Of a stretch of DNA of 64,000 nucleotides, positions 6,801-44,485 are shown one piece after another. The stretch is taken from IMG/VR virus record IMGVR_UViG_2541047860_000002, one strand, 5' to 3'. Under the pieces are notes generated by a model. It was given only the letters and a program-made list of their open reading frames with translations. It had not been told where the DNA came from and searched no databases. Origin of the DNA: a virus. Taxonomy: Duplodnaviria > Heunggongvirae > Uroviricota > Caudoviricetes. The position numbers were made by a program, and so were the translations under genes. Numbering within the stretch: position 1 is the stretch's first letter; every line of letters begins with the position of its first letter.

Positions 6801-6862
6801 ATTGGCAGCCTCCTTTTGCTAATTTAAGGAGCTACCGCGTGAGGTCTCAATCTCAATGGCGG

Positions 6863-6938
6863 TAGCACTGGCTGGGTTGAGACTACCGGCGCAAAAGGGA
6901 ACCGGCCTGCCTTTCGGCAGCCCAGCCAGCACTACCAT
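6863..6938 (-). ncRNA. Candidate structured RNA element (16-bp stem, ~44-nt loop) upstream of the Rha module
   Basis: Arms 6863-6878 and 6923-6938 pair perfectly (two G-U) only when the minus strand is transcribed; plus strand gives two C-A mismatches. Confidence 0.3.
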
Positions 6939-6983
6939 TGATCTTGGAGCTATACGCTACGTATGGCTGTGCGATGGCATGAC

Positions 6984-7007
6984 ACAAAAAAAGACGCTTT
7001 CGGCGTC
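6984..7007 (-). terminator. Rho-independent terminator (GACGC-cgaaa-GCGTC + U7) on minus strand
   Basis: Hairpin 6993-7007 followed on the minus strand by a T run (6984-6992). Confidence 0.5.
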
Positions 7008-7112
7008 TGTGTCGCCTTTTGCATTATCCGGGGTCTCAATCCCGGCACCCGTTTTTCTAAGGTGCCGTAGAAATATACCCCACGATAATGCCAGGGCGCA
7101 ACAGTCAGTATT

Positions 7113-7280: not shown

Positions 7281-7601
7281 TTTGACACCCCCAGCGCGAG
7301 TAAAGAATGCAGATTATCGCGTGAGTGGTGGACGACGAGTGATGGGAAAAGACTGTAGTTGTTCATAGTGTAGTGACTCCTTGCTTTCGGAGCCGCCATC
7401 GACTGTTCCACGGTCTGGTGGCGGCGCAATAAAGGCTGGAACACCGTGAGTCAACGGGGGCTTTTCAGCCACCTATATTGCACCGCCATAGGTATGGCGG
7501 CGGCAATAATACGAAAAACTAAACAGTTTGTCTCAAAAAGTTGACCGGTGTGCCAATCGGTAGTGAATGTACATCGGAGAAATTTTCAATTCAACTTAAA
7601 A

Positions 7602-28357: not shown

Positions 28358-28811
28358 AACGTCTCCTTTTTTACACGCGCGACTATCCCCCGGAAGTGCC
28401 GGTAGTGATGTCGTAAATTCGTATTAATTAAGGGGTACAGCCTGAGCGGCTATATGATGAATTGAAAGGAGTTGTGGCGGTGGTGCCTCCACCTGCCAGG
28501 TTAGCCACTCCTGGCGACGTCACTTATCAGAACGTAGTGAATAAAAATGGCTTCGTCACGAGCGCATAGCCGCAATTACCACAACGGAAACGGCGCTCAC
28601 GCTAATTAAACGCCTTTTCCTGTTGTGCGCCGTGCTCTTCCGGCTGTCACACCGAATCGCCAGGATGGTGAGTCCTCGGTCCGCCACTGTTATCGGGGCT
28701 TGCACATTCCGGCTACCTGGTCCGTTTGCCTGAGCAAGAGTCAAAGATACCCCTTTAACGTCACCAGACCGCTAACGACGCATGTGCCAGACGCCGTGTT
28801 ACAACCAAATA

Positions 28812-28887
28812 TGGTGGCCCCTACCGGACTTGAACCGGTGACCGTGCGATTATGAGTCGCCAGCTCTAACCACTGAGCTAAAGGGCC
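28812..28887 (-). tRNA. tRNA with CAU anticodon (Ile2/Met-type, close to E. coli ileX)
   Basis: GGCCCTTTAGCTCAGTGGTTAGAGC...CTCATAA...GGTTCAAGTCC...CCA cloverleaf folded by eye. Confidence 0.8.
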
Positions 28888-28896
28888 AGATTACTG

Positions 28897-29028
28897 TTAA
28901 TTCCGCTTACGCTTTTTGCCAGGACCGCGTAAGGCTTTTGCTGCTTGCTCGACCCCATATGCAACCACCAGCAGAAATAAAAATGTCCACCAAGGGTTCT
29001 TGTCGGCAAACGTCCAAAATTCCATCAT
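28897..29028 (-). CDS. Small hydrophobic peptide (43 aa) between tRNA and plp
   Basis: MMEFWTFADKNPWWTFLFLLVVAYG... then basic tail. Confidence 0.2.
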   Translation of the reverse strand: MMEFWTFADKNPWWTFLFLLVVAYGVEQAAKALRGPGKKRKRN

Positions 29029-29041
29029 GTTATCTATTTGG

Positions 29042-29869
29042 TTATTTCACCGGAACAAACGGAACAGCGGTATTACTGGTCATATACTGCGGTAGCGTTC
29101 CGTTCCATTTGTTGATCGCTTCCAACTCCATAACGCCGGGGTTCTGGCGCAGAGCCTCACCGCGTAAACGAATGGCATCAGCTTCAGCCTGGGCTTTTGT
29201 GCGAATGGCATCGGCCTGTCCAGCAGCTTCTGCGCGCAGCATGTTGGCTTCTGCTTCGCGTTGCTTGACTTCCTGCTCGCGTTGCAGAGTTTTCTGGTTC
29301 GCCGTGACTTTGGCATTAATGCTGTCGATAACGGTTGGCGGGTACTCCGGCTTGCCCACATATGAGAGGCTCATTACCTGAATACCGATGGGCGTCATTT
29401 CTTCCTGAATGTCTTTAAGGGCTGCATCAAGCAATTCAGATTTGCCACCGTCGATAAATTTGTCGGTGGTCATTTTGCTGGCTAACCGGTTCAGAGCATC
29501 TGCAACCTTCTGGCGTAGATCGGTATCAGTAATATCATCTACACCTTTGCGATAGGTCTGAAATACCGTTGTGACTTTTGCTGGATCAACCTTGTAGGCT
29601 ACGCCGATGTGGTAACCAATGGTTGTTCCGTCGCTCATCTGGAAGCTGAACGGCTCATCGTATGTCTTCATTTGCTTAAAGGTCGGGAAGATATAAACTT
29701 CAGTATTCAAGCCTGTCCAGTAGCGACCAACGCCAACTACTTCACCGATACCTTTATCATCCCCCAGCTTATTTACTTTGATCCCTACGTTACCTGGCTC
29801 TACCCGATCGCATCCGGTCAGACATAAAGAACCAAAAATAATCGCTGCACTAATCAACGTTTTTTTCAT
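29042..29869 (-). CDS. plp: SPFH/band-7 domain lipoprotein (P1 Plp-like)
   Basis: Lipobox ...SLCLTGC; prohibitin-like core and coiled-coil tail; located inside tRNA cluster as in P1. Confidence 0.75.
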   Translation of the reverse strand: MKKTLISAAIIFGSLCLTGCDRVEPGNVGIKVNKLGDDKGIGEVVGVGRYWTGLNTEVYIFPTFKQMKTYDEPFSFQMSDGTTIGYHIGVAYKVDPAKVTTVFQTYRKGVDDITDTDLRQKVADALNRLASKMTTDKFIDGGKSELLDAALKDIQEEMTPIGIQVMSLSYVGKPEYPPTVIDSINAKVTANQKTLQREQEVKQREAEANMLRAEAAGQADAIRTKAQAEADAIRLRGEALRQNPGVMELEAINKWNGTLPQYMTSNTAVPFVPVK

Positions 29870-30086
29870 TAATCAATTTCCTGGTTTTTTCACGAAAAAA
29901 GACTACTGCAAAAGCCGGGTAAATGAGCGCGAGAAGGACTCCCAACAATACAAGTATTGTGCTGTCAGATGAGATCATATTTGGCAAAAGCCAAACATAC
30001 AGAACCAGTGACACAATCAAACAGAGGACGACATAAATATATAACCGCACCCATAGCGTTCGACATTTGTTCGGATTGTTCTGCAT
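29850..30086 (-). CDS. Small membrane protein upstream of plp
   Basis: 78-aa ORF with two hydrophobic helices. Confidence 0.45.
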   Translation of the reverse strand: MQNNPNKCRTLWVRLYIYVVLCLIVSLVLYVWLLPNMISSDSTILVLLGVLLALIYPAFAVVFFREKTRKLINEKNVD

Positions 30087-30349
30087 CCTCTCACTCCATT
30101 ATTTACCGAATAAAAAAGCTGCGGTGCCTGGTGCCTCCAGGTGACGTTAACCAGTTAACAATTAACGCCGGGATGTTTGACTTAACCACTAAGGAGGATT
30201 GTTTTAACTGTTCCGCGTGCGCTTAGCCGCATTCACCGCAATGGTAAGAGCACTTGGCTGGCTGGGCGGCGATGACGCCTGTACGCATTTGGTGATCCGG
30301 TTCTGCTTCCGGCATTCGCTTAATTAGCCAAATACTCTTAACGTTGCAC

Positions 30350-30436
30350 TGGCGGAGAGTAATGGAATCGAACCATCATCGCTTGCGCAATGGGACGGTT
30401 TTCAAGACCGCTTGAGCACCATGCTCCCTACTCTCC
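30350..30436 (-). tRNA. tRNA-Ser-like (UGA anticodon, long variable arm, atypical short D-loop)
   Basis: Perfect 7-bp acceptor stem, anticodon loop CTTGAAA, T-arm GATGG-TTCGATT-CCATT, CCA encoded. Confidence 0.55.
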
Positions 30437-30533
30437 AGTGATTGTGATGGTCGGTGCTGAACTCCGACACAGGGTTGTAGCAAGCCCCGCAAAGCGCGCA
30501 CTACTGTAGTTGCGGCACATCAGCCTGTGCATT

Positions 30534-30633
30534 CACCACAATGTTGAGAACACTGGTTGTCACGCTGCAACGCAACATTTATTCATAGATTGGGATATGA
30601 CCCCGTTACGCCAGTGTTCTCAACGTTGTGGTG
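30534..30633. repeat. 23-bp inverted repeat (CACCACAATGTTGAGAACACTGG / rc) with 54-nt loop; related copies at ~30233 and ~30765
   Basis: 22/23 match between 30534-30556 and rc of 30611-30633. Confidence 0.6.
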
Positions 30634-30838
30634 CCGGTTACGGTTCCGGCCAGGCCTCTTCCTCAACGGGGTGTTCTCCATACGGACTACCGTTTATTGG
30701 TCGTTCCTGCGGTTTATGTTGTGAAGCCAGATGCTTATCTTCTGGTTGCTTCAAAGAGCTGCACTTCATCACAACGGTAAGAGCACTCGATGCATTTAAG
30801 CCAAGCCCCATAAGGGAGAATGCCCTTACCTGTTGTGT

Positions 30839-30914
30839 TGGTGCCGGTTAACGGACTCGAACCGCTGACATCCTGCTTACAAGGCAGGCGCTCTACCAAC
30901 TGAGCTAAACCGGC
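30839..30914 (-). tRNA. tRNA-Thr (UGU)
   Basis: GCCGGTTTAGCTCAGTTGGTAGAGC...CTTGTAA...GGTTCGAGTCC...CCA. Confidence 0.85.
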
Positions 30915-30918
30915 AATT

Positions 30919-31005
30919 TGGTGGGGAGTGATGGAGTCGAACCACCCGAGTCGCAATGACAGTAGATTTACAGTCTACCCCGCTACCCCTACGGACTAAC
31001 TCCCC
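30919..31005 (-). tRNA. tRNA-Tyr (GUA), type II
   Basis: GGGGAGT acceptor, anticodon loop CTGTAAA, long variable arm, GGTTCGACTCC T-loop, CCA. Confidence 0.85.
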
Positions 31006-31010
31006 TAAAT

Positions 31011-31087
31011 TGGCGATGGTGGGTGGATTCGAACCACCGACCGACAGCTTAGAAGGCTGCTGCTCTATCCTACTGAGCTACACCATC
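31011..31087 (-). tRNA. tRNA-Arg (UCU)
   Basis: GATGGTG acceptor, GCTCAGTAGGATAGAGC D-arm, anticodon loop CTTCTAA, GGTTCGAATCC, CCA. Confidence 0.8.
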
Positions 31088-31590
31088 ACTTGCCGGGTAC
31101 GTCTCCGGCGAGGGCTTCCACCTCCGTATGCTTTTCGGCGCACCGCGCCCTGGCTGCAATTCGGTAACAGGGGATGCACAACCCTGGCTTCCAGCGTGAT
31201 TAGCGCCTTCAGCATGACGGGATATACCCGTAGTAGGATGTTATCCCAGAAAGCCATTAATCAATGGCTGTTACGCGGGAGGGACGTAACAGGTAAGGGC
31301 GCTGACCAGAAAGACCTGACCCTTCTCATTCATCTGGTTAATCACACCAGCGCCCTTGCCTGTTATGCCTCCCCGTTCCCTAATACACAGACGGGGACAC
31401 TCTGCGGTCGATTTTTTGACGGGGGACGACTCATACCCCGTGGCGTCTGGCTTCTTAGGCCGCTACCATCATCAGATCATCGTTTGCATTTACTTTAATG
31501 GTCGGTTTCTAAACCGCCGCAAAGTCGCTAACCATGACGAAAACCCTAAAAAAGCCCACCCGAAGATGGGCAAATACGCTACATCTCACA

Positions 31591-31669
31591 CAAGAAAGAA
31601 GCCGACTGCCTGAGCTGGATTCACTTTCAAATGCCCGCAGAAAGGGATCACAAGTCGGCTTCTTTCTTG
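31591..31669. repeat. Perfect 17-bp inverted repeat (CAAGAAAGAAGCCGACT ... AGTCGGCTTCTTTCTTG), 45-nt spacer
   Basis: Direct reading of 31591-31607 and 31653-31669. Confidence 0.7.
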
Positions 31670-32303
31670 ATGCGGCACTCTCTCCGCCCGTCACCGCTCT
31701 GTCTCGGTTGTCGCGTTTGCCACGCCAGCCGTAACGAGGTTTAAAGTCTTTACACGTTTCCATCACTCGACTGCCGTCTGTGGCTGTTCGTTGCAGCGGG
31801 GGTGCCTCCCCCTGGGGATATCCCCGGCCTTACCCCATTCTTTCAAGACACAATGCAAGGCCACATCCGCATAGGTGCATTACCGCAACATTAAGGAGAC
31901 TCAGGGCAAAAGGTAACCGCCACAAAAATCCCTATGCCTCCTTAATGTTGAAGATGTGCATTGATGATTAGATGCAGCATGTACCGTTACTCTCTGCCGG
32001 ACCATCATCAATGAACACCTTAAAAAGACCTTCCGTGGCTCAACATGTATTGTCGTTTACTCCGCAAAGTGCTCTCTCTGAAACCACTTTCCGCACTAAA
32101 CCTGCTGAACTTTGGCCTGCACGGTGCCAAAGCGTGCTCTTGCATTACCATCCTTTTCTAACACTTTAATTTGTTAAATGCTGGTGGGCGAACAATAACC
32201 AATAAGTGACTATCAAGCCCAGCAAGCGAAACGTGGGTACTGCCCACCAGCAAGGAAAATTCTATGTTAAGTTATCTCCACAATCAATACATTCGAATTG
32301 TGA

Positions 32304-32327
32304 TTTTAGATTTCTAACACATTATTT
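32304..32327 (-). promoter_or_regulatory. Operator-like motif (rc TGTGTTAGAAATCTAAAA, copy f) ahead of the noncoding leader and tRNA operon
   Basis: Overlaps stop of ORF 32322-33530; upstream (minus strand) of the tRNA cluster. Confidence 0.4.
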
Positions 32328-33530
32328 CCCATAAAGATCTTCTACACCCCCATTCTTCTTATCCCATTCGTTCGCCCATACCCGGCAAGCGTCAATGATT
32401 TCCTGACGACGATCTCCTTGCATGAACGGGATGCTTTCATGGAAACAGCTTGGAATGCAGGCCACACTGAATACAGTATCAAACTCCGTCTGCTTGATTG
32501 CCTCCAGCGTCTCCGGACGCATTTTTAATTCATCGATTGGCGCATCCTTAGAGTCCATAATCCGGCGATATAAGCGCGGAAAATCCGTCTCCAGGTACGC
32601 CATAATTTTATCTGCGAGACATTCGTCTATGTCGGTATTCCAGTCCTTTTCGAAGCCCGGCAGGCGATAGTAAAGCGGCGTTCCCCATACCGATGGGATC
32701 ACATCCATCGTTAACAGGCGATTGGTTCTGATTTGTTGATGGTAATTAGCCGTCAACAGTGCTTCGCCACGCTGCCCTGTTTCCGCAACCAGGCCGTGCG
32801 GATACTCATGGATGTAGGCAATGGCATCCCTTCCATCATACATGAGTGGAAATGTCTCTGGTCTTTGTCCCATGCCACAAGCACGGTTCAGATCGTGACC
32901 AAGCTGTGAGCACTCTCGCTTTAATGTTTCGATAATGCTCTGCGCTGTAGCCAACTTTTTACGCAGTGTGACGCCTTCGCCTTGATAATCAATGCATTGC
33001 TGATTGAGCTTGGTTAAACGCTCTTTTAGTTCCCTGCGCTCTCTTTTCAGCGTGCGGTTATCCTTCTCCGCAACATCCAGCCGCTTTGTCAGGCTTGGCG
33101 GATAGTCTTTTTTGTAACGGTTCAAATCGGCTTCGGCAGATTTACGCAGTGTATTTGCCTGTTCAAGACGCGCTTCCAGATTGCCGATCTCATTACGCAT
33201 ATTCGCGGCAAATTGATTAACTGCATCACCTAGGCTTTCAACTGTCGCTGATACGCCTGTGACTTGTGAAAAACGGATCAAGCCATCATTAACGGCTTGT
33301 TGGTATTCCTCAAACTGATCCACCAGCTTATTGTAATCAACTGCCCCATCATCAAGCAGCTTGTTGATTTCCGCCACCAGGTTATCTGTAGTGGCAATGA
33401 CACTCTCGTGCAGTCGCTTTGACAGGTCATCACCCGGATTCCGTTTCTGTATAAGAGCGATTTGTGTGCGCAGCGTTTCAATTGCTGTCGAGATAATTTC
33501 CAGATTAGAAGTATCAGTGTGTTGACTCAT
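32322..33530 (-). CDS. Hypothetical protein (probable ATG start 33530)
   Basis: ~400-aa ORF preceded by operator copy g. Confidence 0.5.
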   Translation of the reverse strand: MSQHTDTSNLEIISTAIETLRTQIALIQKRNPGDDLSKRLHESVIATTDNLVAEINKLLDDGAVDYNKLVDQFEEYQQAVNDGLIRFSQVTGVSATVESLGDAVNQFAANMRNEIGNLEARLEQANTLRKSAEADLNRYKKDYPPSLTKRLDVAEKDNRTLKRERRELKERLTKLNQQCIDYQGEGVTLRKKLATAQSIIETLKRECSQLGHDLNRACGMGQRPETFPLMYDGRDAIAYIHEYPHGLVAETGQRGEALLTANYHQQIRTNRLLTMDVIPSVWGTPLYYRLPGFEKDWNTDIDECLADKIMAYLETDFPRLYRRIMDSKDAPIDELKMRPETLEAIKQTEFDTVFSVACIPSCFHESIPFMQGDRRQEIIDACRVWANEWDKKNGGVEDLYGK

Positions 33531-33552
33531 TGCTGTTCCCGTCACTTTGTTA

Positions 33553-33577
33553 AATTAGTTTTCTAACATATTTTATT
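33553..33577 (-). promoter_or_regulatory. Operator-like motif (rc ATGTTAGAAAACTAATTT, copy g)
   Basis: Immediately upstream of ORF 32322-33530. Confidence 0.45.
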
Positions 33578-33643
33578 AGTTTGATGACGGTATCGGAAGA
33601 TGCAATAAACAAAAAACCCGCTAATTGGCTGGTTTTTATGCAA

Positions 33644-33958
33644 TTACTGTGTTGCAGCCTGATAAATAAGATACGCGATAAATACAGGTACGATGGCCCA
33701 TTGCAGCAATGAAAGTAGCCTCATTACTGTTATTGGGGTAACTCCATCCACGTATTGTTTCTCTGACATTTTCCCTAACCAACTAACCGACAACAGTGCC
33801 GAGTTTTCCCCCAATTCCAGCTCTCTGAGAGCTTCACGGATTAACGGCGCTGTCACAGCCTTAACCGGCGTGCTCAACGTGATACTCCGCGTCCTCCCCG
33901 CATCGTCAGCGAACGCCAGACTCACATGATATTTTTTGCTCAATGCACAAACTCCCAA
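33644..33958 (-). CDS. Hypothetical protein with C-terminal TM helix
   Basis: 104-aa ORF. Confidence 0.4.
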   Translation of the reverse strand: MGVCALSKKYHVSLAFADDAGRTRSITLSTPVKAVTAPLIREALRELELGENSALLSVSWLGKMSEKQYVDGVTPITVMRLLSLLQWAIVPVFIAYLIYQAATQ

Positions 33959-44154: not shown

Positions 44155-44485
44155 AGTTACGGCCTCACTAACAGGTTTAACAACCTGCTACCCGCTGTCA
44201 AACAGGTGGCAGGACGTGACAGGGTTGACAGACTGGCGTTAGTGAAACCAGCAGGCCGAAGCCTCCCCATCACGCCCCACCATAATTCGGGCGTAACGCG
44301 GTTTACGGACACAAAAATACCGCAATATCGGAAATCTGCGGTTGTCCGCACTAACATTCAGGCTGTCAAACCTGGTCGCAGAATTTGCTACGACGGCATG
44401 AATATAAGCCTGAAAACATGGAAGATCAACTAAAAAATTTCAGCAATGGATGACTTCAGTCGATGATGCAGATCATACATTCCGA

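Follow-up and report, generated by a model that had tools for sequence, protein, structure and literature searches.

What is encoded in the 1.2 kb that separate a pmgS-like gene from the tRNA cluster of a P1-family plasmid prophage? We addressed this question for positions 31088–32303 of IMG/VR record IMGVR_UViG_2541047860_000002, taken from a 64,000-nt stretch of this virus that was analysed as a whole (the window). Sequence comparison identified the entire window as a plasmid prophage of the P1 family that resembles D6. With phage D6 the region shares 98.4% identity from end to end, and its tRNA-proximal 487 nt (31088–31574) are ~91% identical to P1 68855–69347 and to the counterparts in P7, SJ46 and relatives. 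A plasmid of Escherichia coli 2015C-3108 (NZ_CP027309.1) is 100% identical over the part of the region tested, and its RefSeq annotation places nothing between the upstream coding sequence and tRNA-Arg. Because all neighbouring genes and the tRNAs (Arg-tct, Tyr, Thr, Ser, Met-cat) are on the minus strand, the region must be read from right to left. An initial annotation of this DNA had proposed either a structured non-coding RNA or a long regulated leader; both readings hold, given a conserved promoter with operator-like sites, stems with compensated changes and the lack of a conserved frame. We consider it likely that the region is a non-coding minus-strand leader into the prophage tRNA cluster, built of four modules that include a messenger module derived from transfer-messenger RNA (tmRNA).

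Overlooked in that annotation were an intrinsic terminator (31571–31548) that divides the region in two, a downstream part of 460 nt held in common with P1 and, within it, a tmRNA-like tag module of ~200 nt that follows directly after the terminator. The module comprises the following elements.

31488–31546, minus strand: 5' domain, GGGUUUUCGUC...GCGACUUUGCGG...UUUAGAAACCGACCAUUAAAGUAAAU, with the resume context at its end and UA at −5/−4.
31455–31487, minus strand: tag frame GCA AAC GAT GAT CTG ATG ATG GTA GCG GCC TAA, that is ANDDLMMVAA plus stop, recognized by frame conservation.
31407–31441, minus strand: post-tag hairpin ACGGGG/CCCCGU (31441–31436 with 31424–31419), recognized by covariation.
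31407–31441, minus strand: first pseudoknot, in which the loop GUCG (31430–31427) can pair with its partner CGAC (31410–31407).
31370–31405, minus strand: second pseudoknot, with stem 1 GCAGA/UCUGU (31405–31401/31391–31387) and stem 2 UCCCCG/CGGGGA (31397–31392/31375–31370), recognized by covariation.

Conservation of the tag frame is of the coding type. Its 10 sense codons and stop are kept in all of 124 instances that have a 10-codon frame, which represent 30 nucleotide versions; the encoded tags include ANDDLMMVAA, ANDDVVLMAA, ANDDLMLMAA, ANDEQFLAVA, ANEEMYLAVA, ANDNTFLAVA and ANDNAVRVAA. ANDDLMMVAA is the predicted tag of P1 (NC_005856.1 68944–68976) and D6, and ANDDVVLMAA that of T1-like phages. 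Variability is highest at third codon positions (nine of the 10 vary, with 18 extra alleles compared to 10 at first and seven at second positions), some changes are synonymous, and of the 30 versions 29 are closed in one alternative frame and 24 in the other. The 5' domain is kept across unrelated phage families, and two candidate helices for a pseudoknot (PK1) and P2 helix upstream of the tag, AGUUUU/GAAACU and CUUUG/CAAAG, are near-invariant or shifted in register between phage groups.

Downstream of the tag, the stem of the post-tag hairpin and the second pseudoknot covary. Versions of the former among phages include UCAGGG/CCCUGA, UCGGGA/UCCUGA, UGAAGG/CCUUCA, GCAAGG/CCUUGU and GUGAGG/CCUCAU, and in a second type of module the loop and its partner are CCGA/UCGG, changed to CCAA/UUGG at two loci (L045, L070). 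In the second pseudoknot of the type found in the window, all 10 variants are fully paired (5/5 and 6/6) with seven versions of stem 1, whose strands form a mean of 5.0 pairs with their own partners compared to 4.05 with permuted ones. Resume context, tag, stop beside a small hairpin and then pseudoknots is, as far as can be read from sequence, the architecture of a tmRNA messenger domain. ARAGORN at an 80% threshold reported the tag with its 'resume consensus sequence' in nearly every locus, and alignments of resume region and tag to the Rfam model RF04321 (tmRNA_permuted), in whose tag-proximal part the 5' domain is also placed, scored 24.1 bits for the window, 33.1 bits for locus L012 and 26.3 and 22.9 bits for two lambdoid prophages (L010 and L011). 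Homology to E. coli ssrA beyond the tag was rejected: the local alignment score of 25 falls within the range for shuffled sequences (mean 24, maximum 33), and because of this the shared GTGGAAGCCCT, spotted by eye, is unsupported. Base pairing of the module with E. coli tmRNA was likewise rejected (duplex energy −118.6, no better than the shuffled mean of −121.3).

The module is widespread among phages. A blastn search with a 231-nt query matched 308 phage records from unrelated families, among them P1-like phages, the N4-like ECBP1 and Pylas, Ackermannviridae (Det7, Ag3, Serratia phage 3M), T1-like Drexlerviridae, Aeromonas phage pIS4-A and a Grimontviridae phage; a pattern scan of IMG/VR added 120 further loci. 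In the phages examined, it lies upstream of tRNA genes and on their strand. In E. coli chromosomes it is found in lambdoid prophages, where a gap without annotation separates the antiterminator Q from the holin gene; at L010 (3001–3090) and L011 (3001–3109) this gap measures ~1.1 kb, with the tag module ~360 nt downstream of Q, and the L011 gap also contains two T-arm-like hairpins that ARAGORN does not call as tRNA. With four matches in 185,579 genomes, the module is essentially absent from species-representative bacterial genomes. Among the matches listed, the only annotations at the match are the 'dicF-like region' of P1 and three hypothetical proteins, the module having escaped annotation in the records examined because it fails tmRNA detectors. 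The tag peptides do not occur in searchable papers, and in the part of the relevant literature that we consulted we found no published description of a messenger-only tmRNA in P1 or coliphages.

The upstream part of the region has features of a structured RNA of ~700 nt (32252–31548, minus strand) with its own promoter, operator-like sites and terminator.

32311–32327, no strand assigned: operator-like 17-mer TTTCTAACACATTATTT, upstream of the −35 element and overlapping the stop of the pmgS-like gene.
32259–32287, minus strand: sigma-70-like promoter TTGATT-17-TAGAAT, from a promoter scan and conservation.
32179–32252, minus strand: 5'-terminal stem-loop with an 11-bp stem, UGCUGGUGGGC/GCCCACCAGCA, and a variable interior, from repeat and alignment.
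32155–32171, no strand assigned: a further copy of the operator-like 17-mer, 156 bp away from the one above and lying downstream of the probable transcription start, conserved in all homologues.
31948–32024, minus strand: long hairpin with stem CAUUGAUGAU/AUCAUCAAUG, 10 pairs that are 97.9% paired and a loop of variable length.
31886–31950, minus strand: long hairpin, a 10-bp repeat extended to ~20 bp, with UAAGGAGG in its 5' arm.
31789–31885, minus strand: near-invariant core in the alignment, with three short hairpins including GGGGAUAUCCCC and GGGGG-AGGCA-CCCCC.
31591–31669, minus strand: extended hairpin formed by a perfect 17-bp repeat, with an inner stem topped by the conserved loop UGCGGGCAUUU; 19 nt separate it from the terminator hairpin downstream.
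31548–31571, minus strand: predicted intrinsic terminator, a G+C-rich hairpin GCCCAUCUUCGGGUGGGC followed by U6.

The promoter (32287–32259) is the sole promoter-like site within 28500–33800; across 15 homologues from D6-like plasmids both hexamers are kept while the spacer diverges. Transcription would start near 32252, and the predicted transcript begins directly with the 11-bp stem-loop. The 17-mer at 32311–32327, which had been taken as 'operator copy f' and, opposite tRNA-Arg at 31011–31087, as the flank of the region (both flanks are in place), has a core, TGTTAGAAA, that is invariant across the 15 homologues. In the window the 17-mer TTTCTAACACWTTAWTT occurs in seven copies compared to 0.68 expected; copies of TTTCTAACAYNTTANTT lie at 7594, 11436, 21509, 32155, 32311, 33560 and 34604, one of them just upstream of the start of the pmgS-like gene. 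The two conserved copies bracket the promoter and first hairpin without overlapping the hexamers. The C1 operators of P1 are dispersed over its genome, and the dispersal of the 17-mer is the pattern of P1-type C1 operators, by which analogy the copies are putative repressor sites.

Folding energies relative to dinucleotide shuffles gave z scores of −4.19 for the upstream 705 nt and −3.50 for the downstream 460 nt. The perfect 17-bp inverted repeat described initially (arms 31591–31607/31653–31669, 100% complementary, 45-nt spacer) is present as claimed, and its chance expectation within 300 nt in 1.2 kb is ~2e-5 (~3.6e5 position pairs × 4^-17). The 10-bp repeat CATTAAGGAG/CTCCTTAATG turned out to be longer than first thought, with 21-nt arms (31886–31906/31930–31950) that are 86% complementary, and three further inverted repeats had gone unlisted: 31948–31968/32004–32024, 32179–32189/32242–32252 (11/11) and 31278–31304/31348–31374 (27 nt, 81%). 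The conservation of structure in related phages, suggested at the time as a check, bore out the stems, which are kept through compensatory changes and through G:U pairs workable only in the minus-strand RNA. In the hairpin at 31591–31669, eight sequence variants share one common fold with compensatory changes at three of the 17 pairs, and three versions of the lower stem (CAAGAAAGAAGCCGACU, CAAGAUAAAAGCCGACU and CAACAUACAAGCCGAUU) are each matched by their own 3' arm. The hairpin at 31886–31950 has 20 pairs that are 99.6% paired, with two compensatory pairs and an invariant G:U, and in the 11-bp stem nine pairs are invariant and one shows a compensatory change from C:G to G:C, the loop accepting insertions and deletions. 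Over the 15-sequence alignment, 92.3% of cells in the upstream helices are paired compared to 37–56% when the 3' partners are slid by 1–3 columns. The core at 31789–31885 is kept even in the most divergent plasmids (L005, L006). The 700-nt module is restricted to D6-like plasmids (121 plasmid records, with D6 alone among phage records), and the terminator is conserved throughout the D6-like plasmids and in P1. In some relatives a further block of ~100 nt, which is the 'dicF-like' sequence of P1, separates the big hairpin from the terminator and ~127 nt are missing elsewhere, so the leader is modular; the window itself has no such 'dicF-like' block.

How does the tag module relate to tmRNA proper? 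A tmRNA is defined by a tRNA-like part and a messenger part together. To our knowledge, the natural tmRNA half-molecules so far reported keep the tRNA-like part (phage DS6A, some plastids). The module has the resume codon context, an Ala-initial tag with its stop and the downstream pseudoknots; it has no tRNA-like domain and stays below the family threshold. Nor is it the coding piece of a two-piece permuted gene in the window, where a terminator hairpin and U-run precede the module and there is no acceptor piece. A permuted phage tmRNA is known from OM43 phage Melnitz (PMC9004378), and the only phage tmRNAs listed in surveys are complete genes and the form of DS6A that has just a tRNA-like domain, truncated candidates having been rejected (PMC4131195, PMC11915505, PMC9004378). 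At default thresholds ARAGORN called complete permuted tmRNAs on six viral metagenome contigs (L113, L057, L061, L121, L125 and L136). Such genes consist of an acceptor piece (T-arm followed by GCCUCCACCA) and a coding piece that starts from GGGGGCG (with G3:U70), continues with UAGGAUCGAC and later reads ...GACCACUAUAGUAAAU|GCAAACGAU; L113 and L121 combine G3:U70, T-arm and CCA with the same resume context as the module. The permuted genes on IMG/VR contigs have their own promoters and encode the tags ANDNFAPMALAA, ANDNFASQDYALAA, ANDNVASRYALAA and ANDNNVVEALAA, and at L135 and L111 ARAGORN made no call though acceptor-piece-like sequences are visible.

The module resembles the coding piece of these genes in the resume context UAAAU|GCA AAC GA, in a tag that begins Ala-Asn-Asp and ends in small or hydrophobic residues plus Ala, in a stop in or beside a small hairpin, in pseudoknots after the tag and in its 5' segment, UAGUUUUCGU being similar to UAGGAUCGAC of L113. 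It differs in lacking the GGGGGCG acceptor strand, the T-arm acceptor piece and CCA, in a tag that is always 10 codons long and ends MAA, VAA or AVA, not ALAA, and in being embedded in a leader upstream of tRNA genes instead of forming a stand-alone gene (T1-like phages excepted). With enterobacterial ssrA (tag ANDENYALAA) it shares an encoded tag of 10 residues, the same first three or four of these and UA at −5/−4, but it has no significant nucleotide alignment beyond the tag and no tRNA-like domain, and is missed by default ARAGORN and at the Rfam gathering score. DS6A likewise carries a phage-borne half of tmRNA, but it keeps the tRNA-like domain without a tag frame, whereas the module keeps the tag frame and pseudoknots. 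In phage Pylas, a T-arm followed directly by ACCA lies upstream of the module, and next comes a spacer like that between the two pieces of L113. From this comparison of Pylas with the complete permuted genes we infer that the ancestor of the 10-codon modules was a permuted phage tmRNA, of which both acceptor strands have been lost. By its sequence, then, the tag module would work like, and derive from, a tmRNA coding piece yet, having no tRNA-like domain, falls outside the tmRNAs as defined.

Several observations weigh against this interpretation of the leader and its module. The upstream 700 nt vary little, and most of their helices are simply invariant. Part of the context upstream of the tag, as well as its first 8 nt, was set by the search pattern behind the tag alignments, so conservation there is partly a matter of ascertainment, the rest being informative. 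RF04321 scores are about half the gathering score of 47 (best 33.1, at L012), and there are no matches at gathering thresholds. The tRNA-like domain was not found: ARAGORN calls none at default thresholds, and at relaxed ones (80%, 60%) it places tRNA-like parts inconsistently between loci, with many false positives. A T-arm followed by a strand complementary to the 5' flank (plus NCCA) was seen in none of 121 loci, T-arm-like hairpins outside called tRNAs lie at no consistent offset from the tag, and an Rfam E-value scan of the 64-kb window gave no match to tmRNA or a tRNA-like domain elsewhere. Finally, the near-consensus promoter of T1-like phages (TTGACA-17-TAGATT) ends 5–8 nt before the conserved GAUAGUUUUCG, which leaves no room for a 7-nt acceptor strand.

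Might the tmRNA-like segment, then, be a functionless relic of a complete permuted phage tmRNA that hitch-hikes with the recombining modules of tRNA clusters? The lack of a tRNA-like domain would fit such an origin, as would the position of the module in leaders and spacers amid heterogeneous shuffled modules and the T-arm plus ACCA of Pylas, which resembles a decayed acceptor piece; ssrA fragments in prophages have been ascribed to imprecise excision (PMC9004378). We nevertheless think it unlikely. In unrelated families of both virulent and temperate phages, 30 versions keep the frame length, the stop and a conservative amino acid pattern, third positions show excess variability and the alternative frames are mostly closed, the downstream stems are kept by compensatory changes, and T1-like phages drive the module from a near-consensus promoter of their own.

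Given the coding-type constraint on its frame, the tag within the leader would, in the working model that we find most likely, still be read as a template for trans-translation with the help of a tRNA-like partner, although this would be the weakest step of the scheme. The full proposal, that a functional messenger-only tmRNA piece present in many enterobacterial phage families, P1, lambdoid and T1-like phages included, would act with a tRNA-like partner of phage or host to redirect trans-translation to a phage tag (...LMAA, ...MVAA or ...LAVA, not ...ALAA), is a doubtful one on our reckoning. If it were true, the fate of proteins from stalled ribosomes would be altered during lytic growth.

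We judge it improbable that the module serves as a decoy, a mimic of the messenger domain that would modulate host trans-translation in lytic growth by titrating SmpB, ribosomal protein S1, RNase R or stalled ribosomes, as a mirror image of DS6A. A molecule of the DS6A type, with only the tRNA-like domain, is reported to inhibit tmRNA, perhaps by titrating SmpB (PMC4131195, PMC11915505); the resume context and pseudoknots are kept in the module with no acceptor end, and its genomic contexts would imply expression with lytic functions. For a decoy, however, it is hard to see why a frame fixed at 10 codons, with Ala or Val before its stop, should be constrained at the level of codons.

There is very little to commend the view that the region encodes one or more small proteins, such as the 68-aa plus-strand open reading frame (ORF) at 31214–31417. 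This ORF matches phrog_27020 (E = 3e-45), and hypothetical proteins are annotated in the homologous region of the SJ46 and JL22 records. It is, however, broken by a frameshift or stop in P1, L005 and L009, and its substitutions are spread evenly over codon positions (27/25/26). In the window, phrog_27020, phrog_4647 and phrog_27294 match an ORF (30956–31498, plus strand) that is antisense to the tmRNA-like module and tRNA genes. Because the same query also matches PHROGs antisense to tRNA genes, we take phrog_27020 to be a family of spurious ORFs, and all three PHROGs probably collect such calls; the phrog_27020 match is explained by nucleotide conservation among close relatives. The initial observation that there is no convincing ORF was borne out by comparison with homologues, as no frame survives. 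Of the ORFs of at least 30 aa in 31088–32303, none stays open across homologues diverged by 7–20% except for two of ~30 codons in a near-invariant block, which are frameshifted in L009 and L006, and no ORF of the region matches Pfam. Membership in a known RNA family was rejected as well: at gathering thresholds Rfam finds only the tRNAs, sub-threshold matches to STnc240, MicA and microRNA families reflect hairpins and the terminator, and, with E allowed up to 0.5–10, the DicF small RNA model (RF00039) still matches neither the window nor P1, L004 or L005.

That the palindromes act as DNA, be it as a replication origin (an initial suggestion), a recombination site or a protein-binding cruciform, is barely credible even with long perfect inverted repeats present: nothing points to an origin because the region has no DnaA boxes, no iteron-like direct repeats and only two GATC sites, conserved G:U pairs in the stems are A:C mismatches on the other strand, pseudoknots cannot form as DNA cruciforms, and the region, its upstream 700 nt included, has no paralogue within the window except for the operator motif.

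Under the interpretation that we prefer, of a non-coding leader into the tRNA cluster, the stretch between the tag module and the first tRNA completes the transcript.

31278–31374, minus strand: long-stem hairpin of the ACAGGYAAGRGC...GCYCUUNCCUGU family, enclosing a small hairpin with the conserved loop UGUGAUUAA.
31088–31277, minus strand: 3' leader to the 5' end of tRNA-Arg, its last ~140 nt almost identical to P1.
31011–31087, minus strand: tRNA-Arg(tct), from the tRNA call.

The 3' leader matches no RNA family. In other phages the loop GGUGUGAUUAAUAA is conserved on covarying stems, and the long stem CACAACAGGUAAGAGC...GCUCUUUCCGUUGUG encloses variable inserts of 46–231 nt, with 79 distinct modules in the phage tRNA arrays of the loci examined. 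Sites with this stem occur in the window (30773–30833 and 31278–31374), at L010, L011, L016 and L019 and at many IMG/VR loci; it is a recurrent part of tRNA arrays of the P1-like, lambdoid (Q-S gap) and T1-like kinds, whose tRNAs are preceded by similar CACAAC leaders. The stems look like a shared cassette or processing-stem system. In rRNA operons and T7 early transcripts, long RNase III processing stems flank stable RNAs. The stems here are similar in that they are long and near-perfect (17–20 bp) and enclose or separate RNA modules in what would be a polycistronic stable-RNA transcript, but they form a specific conserved sequence family, ACAGGUAAGAGC...GCUCUUUCC. The idea that the ACAGGUAAGAGC stems are acceptor stems of the alanine type was rejected, the third pair being U:A in 30 modules and U:U in 26, with others making up the rest, and no CCA following.

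As we picture it, the promoter at 32287–32259 would be repressed in the lysogen and fire in lytic growth. Transcription could then end at the terminator, yielding an RNA of ~700 nt, or continue past it into the tag module and on to the tRNAs. Processing at the long stems and at the tRNA 5' ends would release stable RNAs, and the long-stem hairpin and 3' leader would presumably be removed as RNase P and other RNases free the tRNAs.

By its sequence, the leader itself is a tRNA-operon leader of the P1 type. Its P1 counterpart is the promoter-distal leader between the C1-controlled promoter Pban (operator Op72) and tRNA-Asn, where 'dicF-like region' is the sole annotation of the homologous stretch (NC_005856.1). 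The terminator and the 460 nt after it are shared with this ban operon leader (Pban/Op72, 'dicF-like region', tRNA-Asn, tRNA-Thr) at 91% identity, and both leaders lie directly upstream of tRNA genes behind a promoter associated with repressor operators, which in the window are operator-like. They differ in that ~700 nt of unrelated structured RNA lie between promoter and terminator in the window compared to ~110 nt in P1, that the window lacks the ~100-nt 'dicF-like' module, that the upstream neighbour is pmgS-like and not dmt, and that the operators of the window flank the promoter whereas those of P1 overlap it. D6 has homologues of the leader, tRNA and tciA/B, and no ban homologue is annotated in it within 4 kb downstream.

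The tRNA set behind the conserved leader varies between otherwise similar plasmids, and among loci L001–L009 the first tRNA is exchanged while its own 5' leader is unchanged. The cassette is Arg-Tyr-Thr-Ser-Met(cat) in the window (28812–31087) and L009, Arg-Thr-Ser-Met in L007 and L008, Asn-Thr-Ser-Met in D6 and L004, Asn-Thr-Met in P1, L003 and L005, and Arg-Thr-Met in L006. In the phage D6 record (L002, MF356679.1 7145–7850), tRNAs are annotated on the strand opposite to the ARAGORN calls. Downstream of their tRNA clusters, the window, P1 and a D6-like plasmid have sub-threshold matches to the Salmonella small RNA family STnc100 (gathering score 47), at window 30120–30240 (minus strand, 39.4 bits), L001 3149–3268 (33.4) and L004 4393–4530 (40.8). 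Between tRNA-Thr and tRNA-Ser, positions 30525–30644 form a further very long hairpin, the source of spurious matches to microRNA families. Elsewhere in the window (6855–7065, 7414–7493 and 44202–44407), C4 antisense RNA genes occur as two full copies and a third, weaker one, accompanied by isrK and c4 target motifs, which gives the element two immI-type immunity regions.

For phage annotation, the tag module explains several spurious hypothetical proteins. For phage biology, it is the reciprocal tmRNA half, a tag with covarying pseudoknots, found beside phage tRNA genes in hundreds of genomes including P1 and showing coding-type conservation. Should the module be functional, ribosome rescue or protein tagging may be subject to a form of phage manipulation not yet described; even as a relic, it would mark a shared system of mobile tRNA-cluster cassettes that links temperate and virulent enterobacterial phages.

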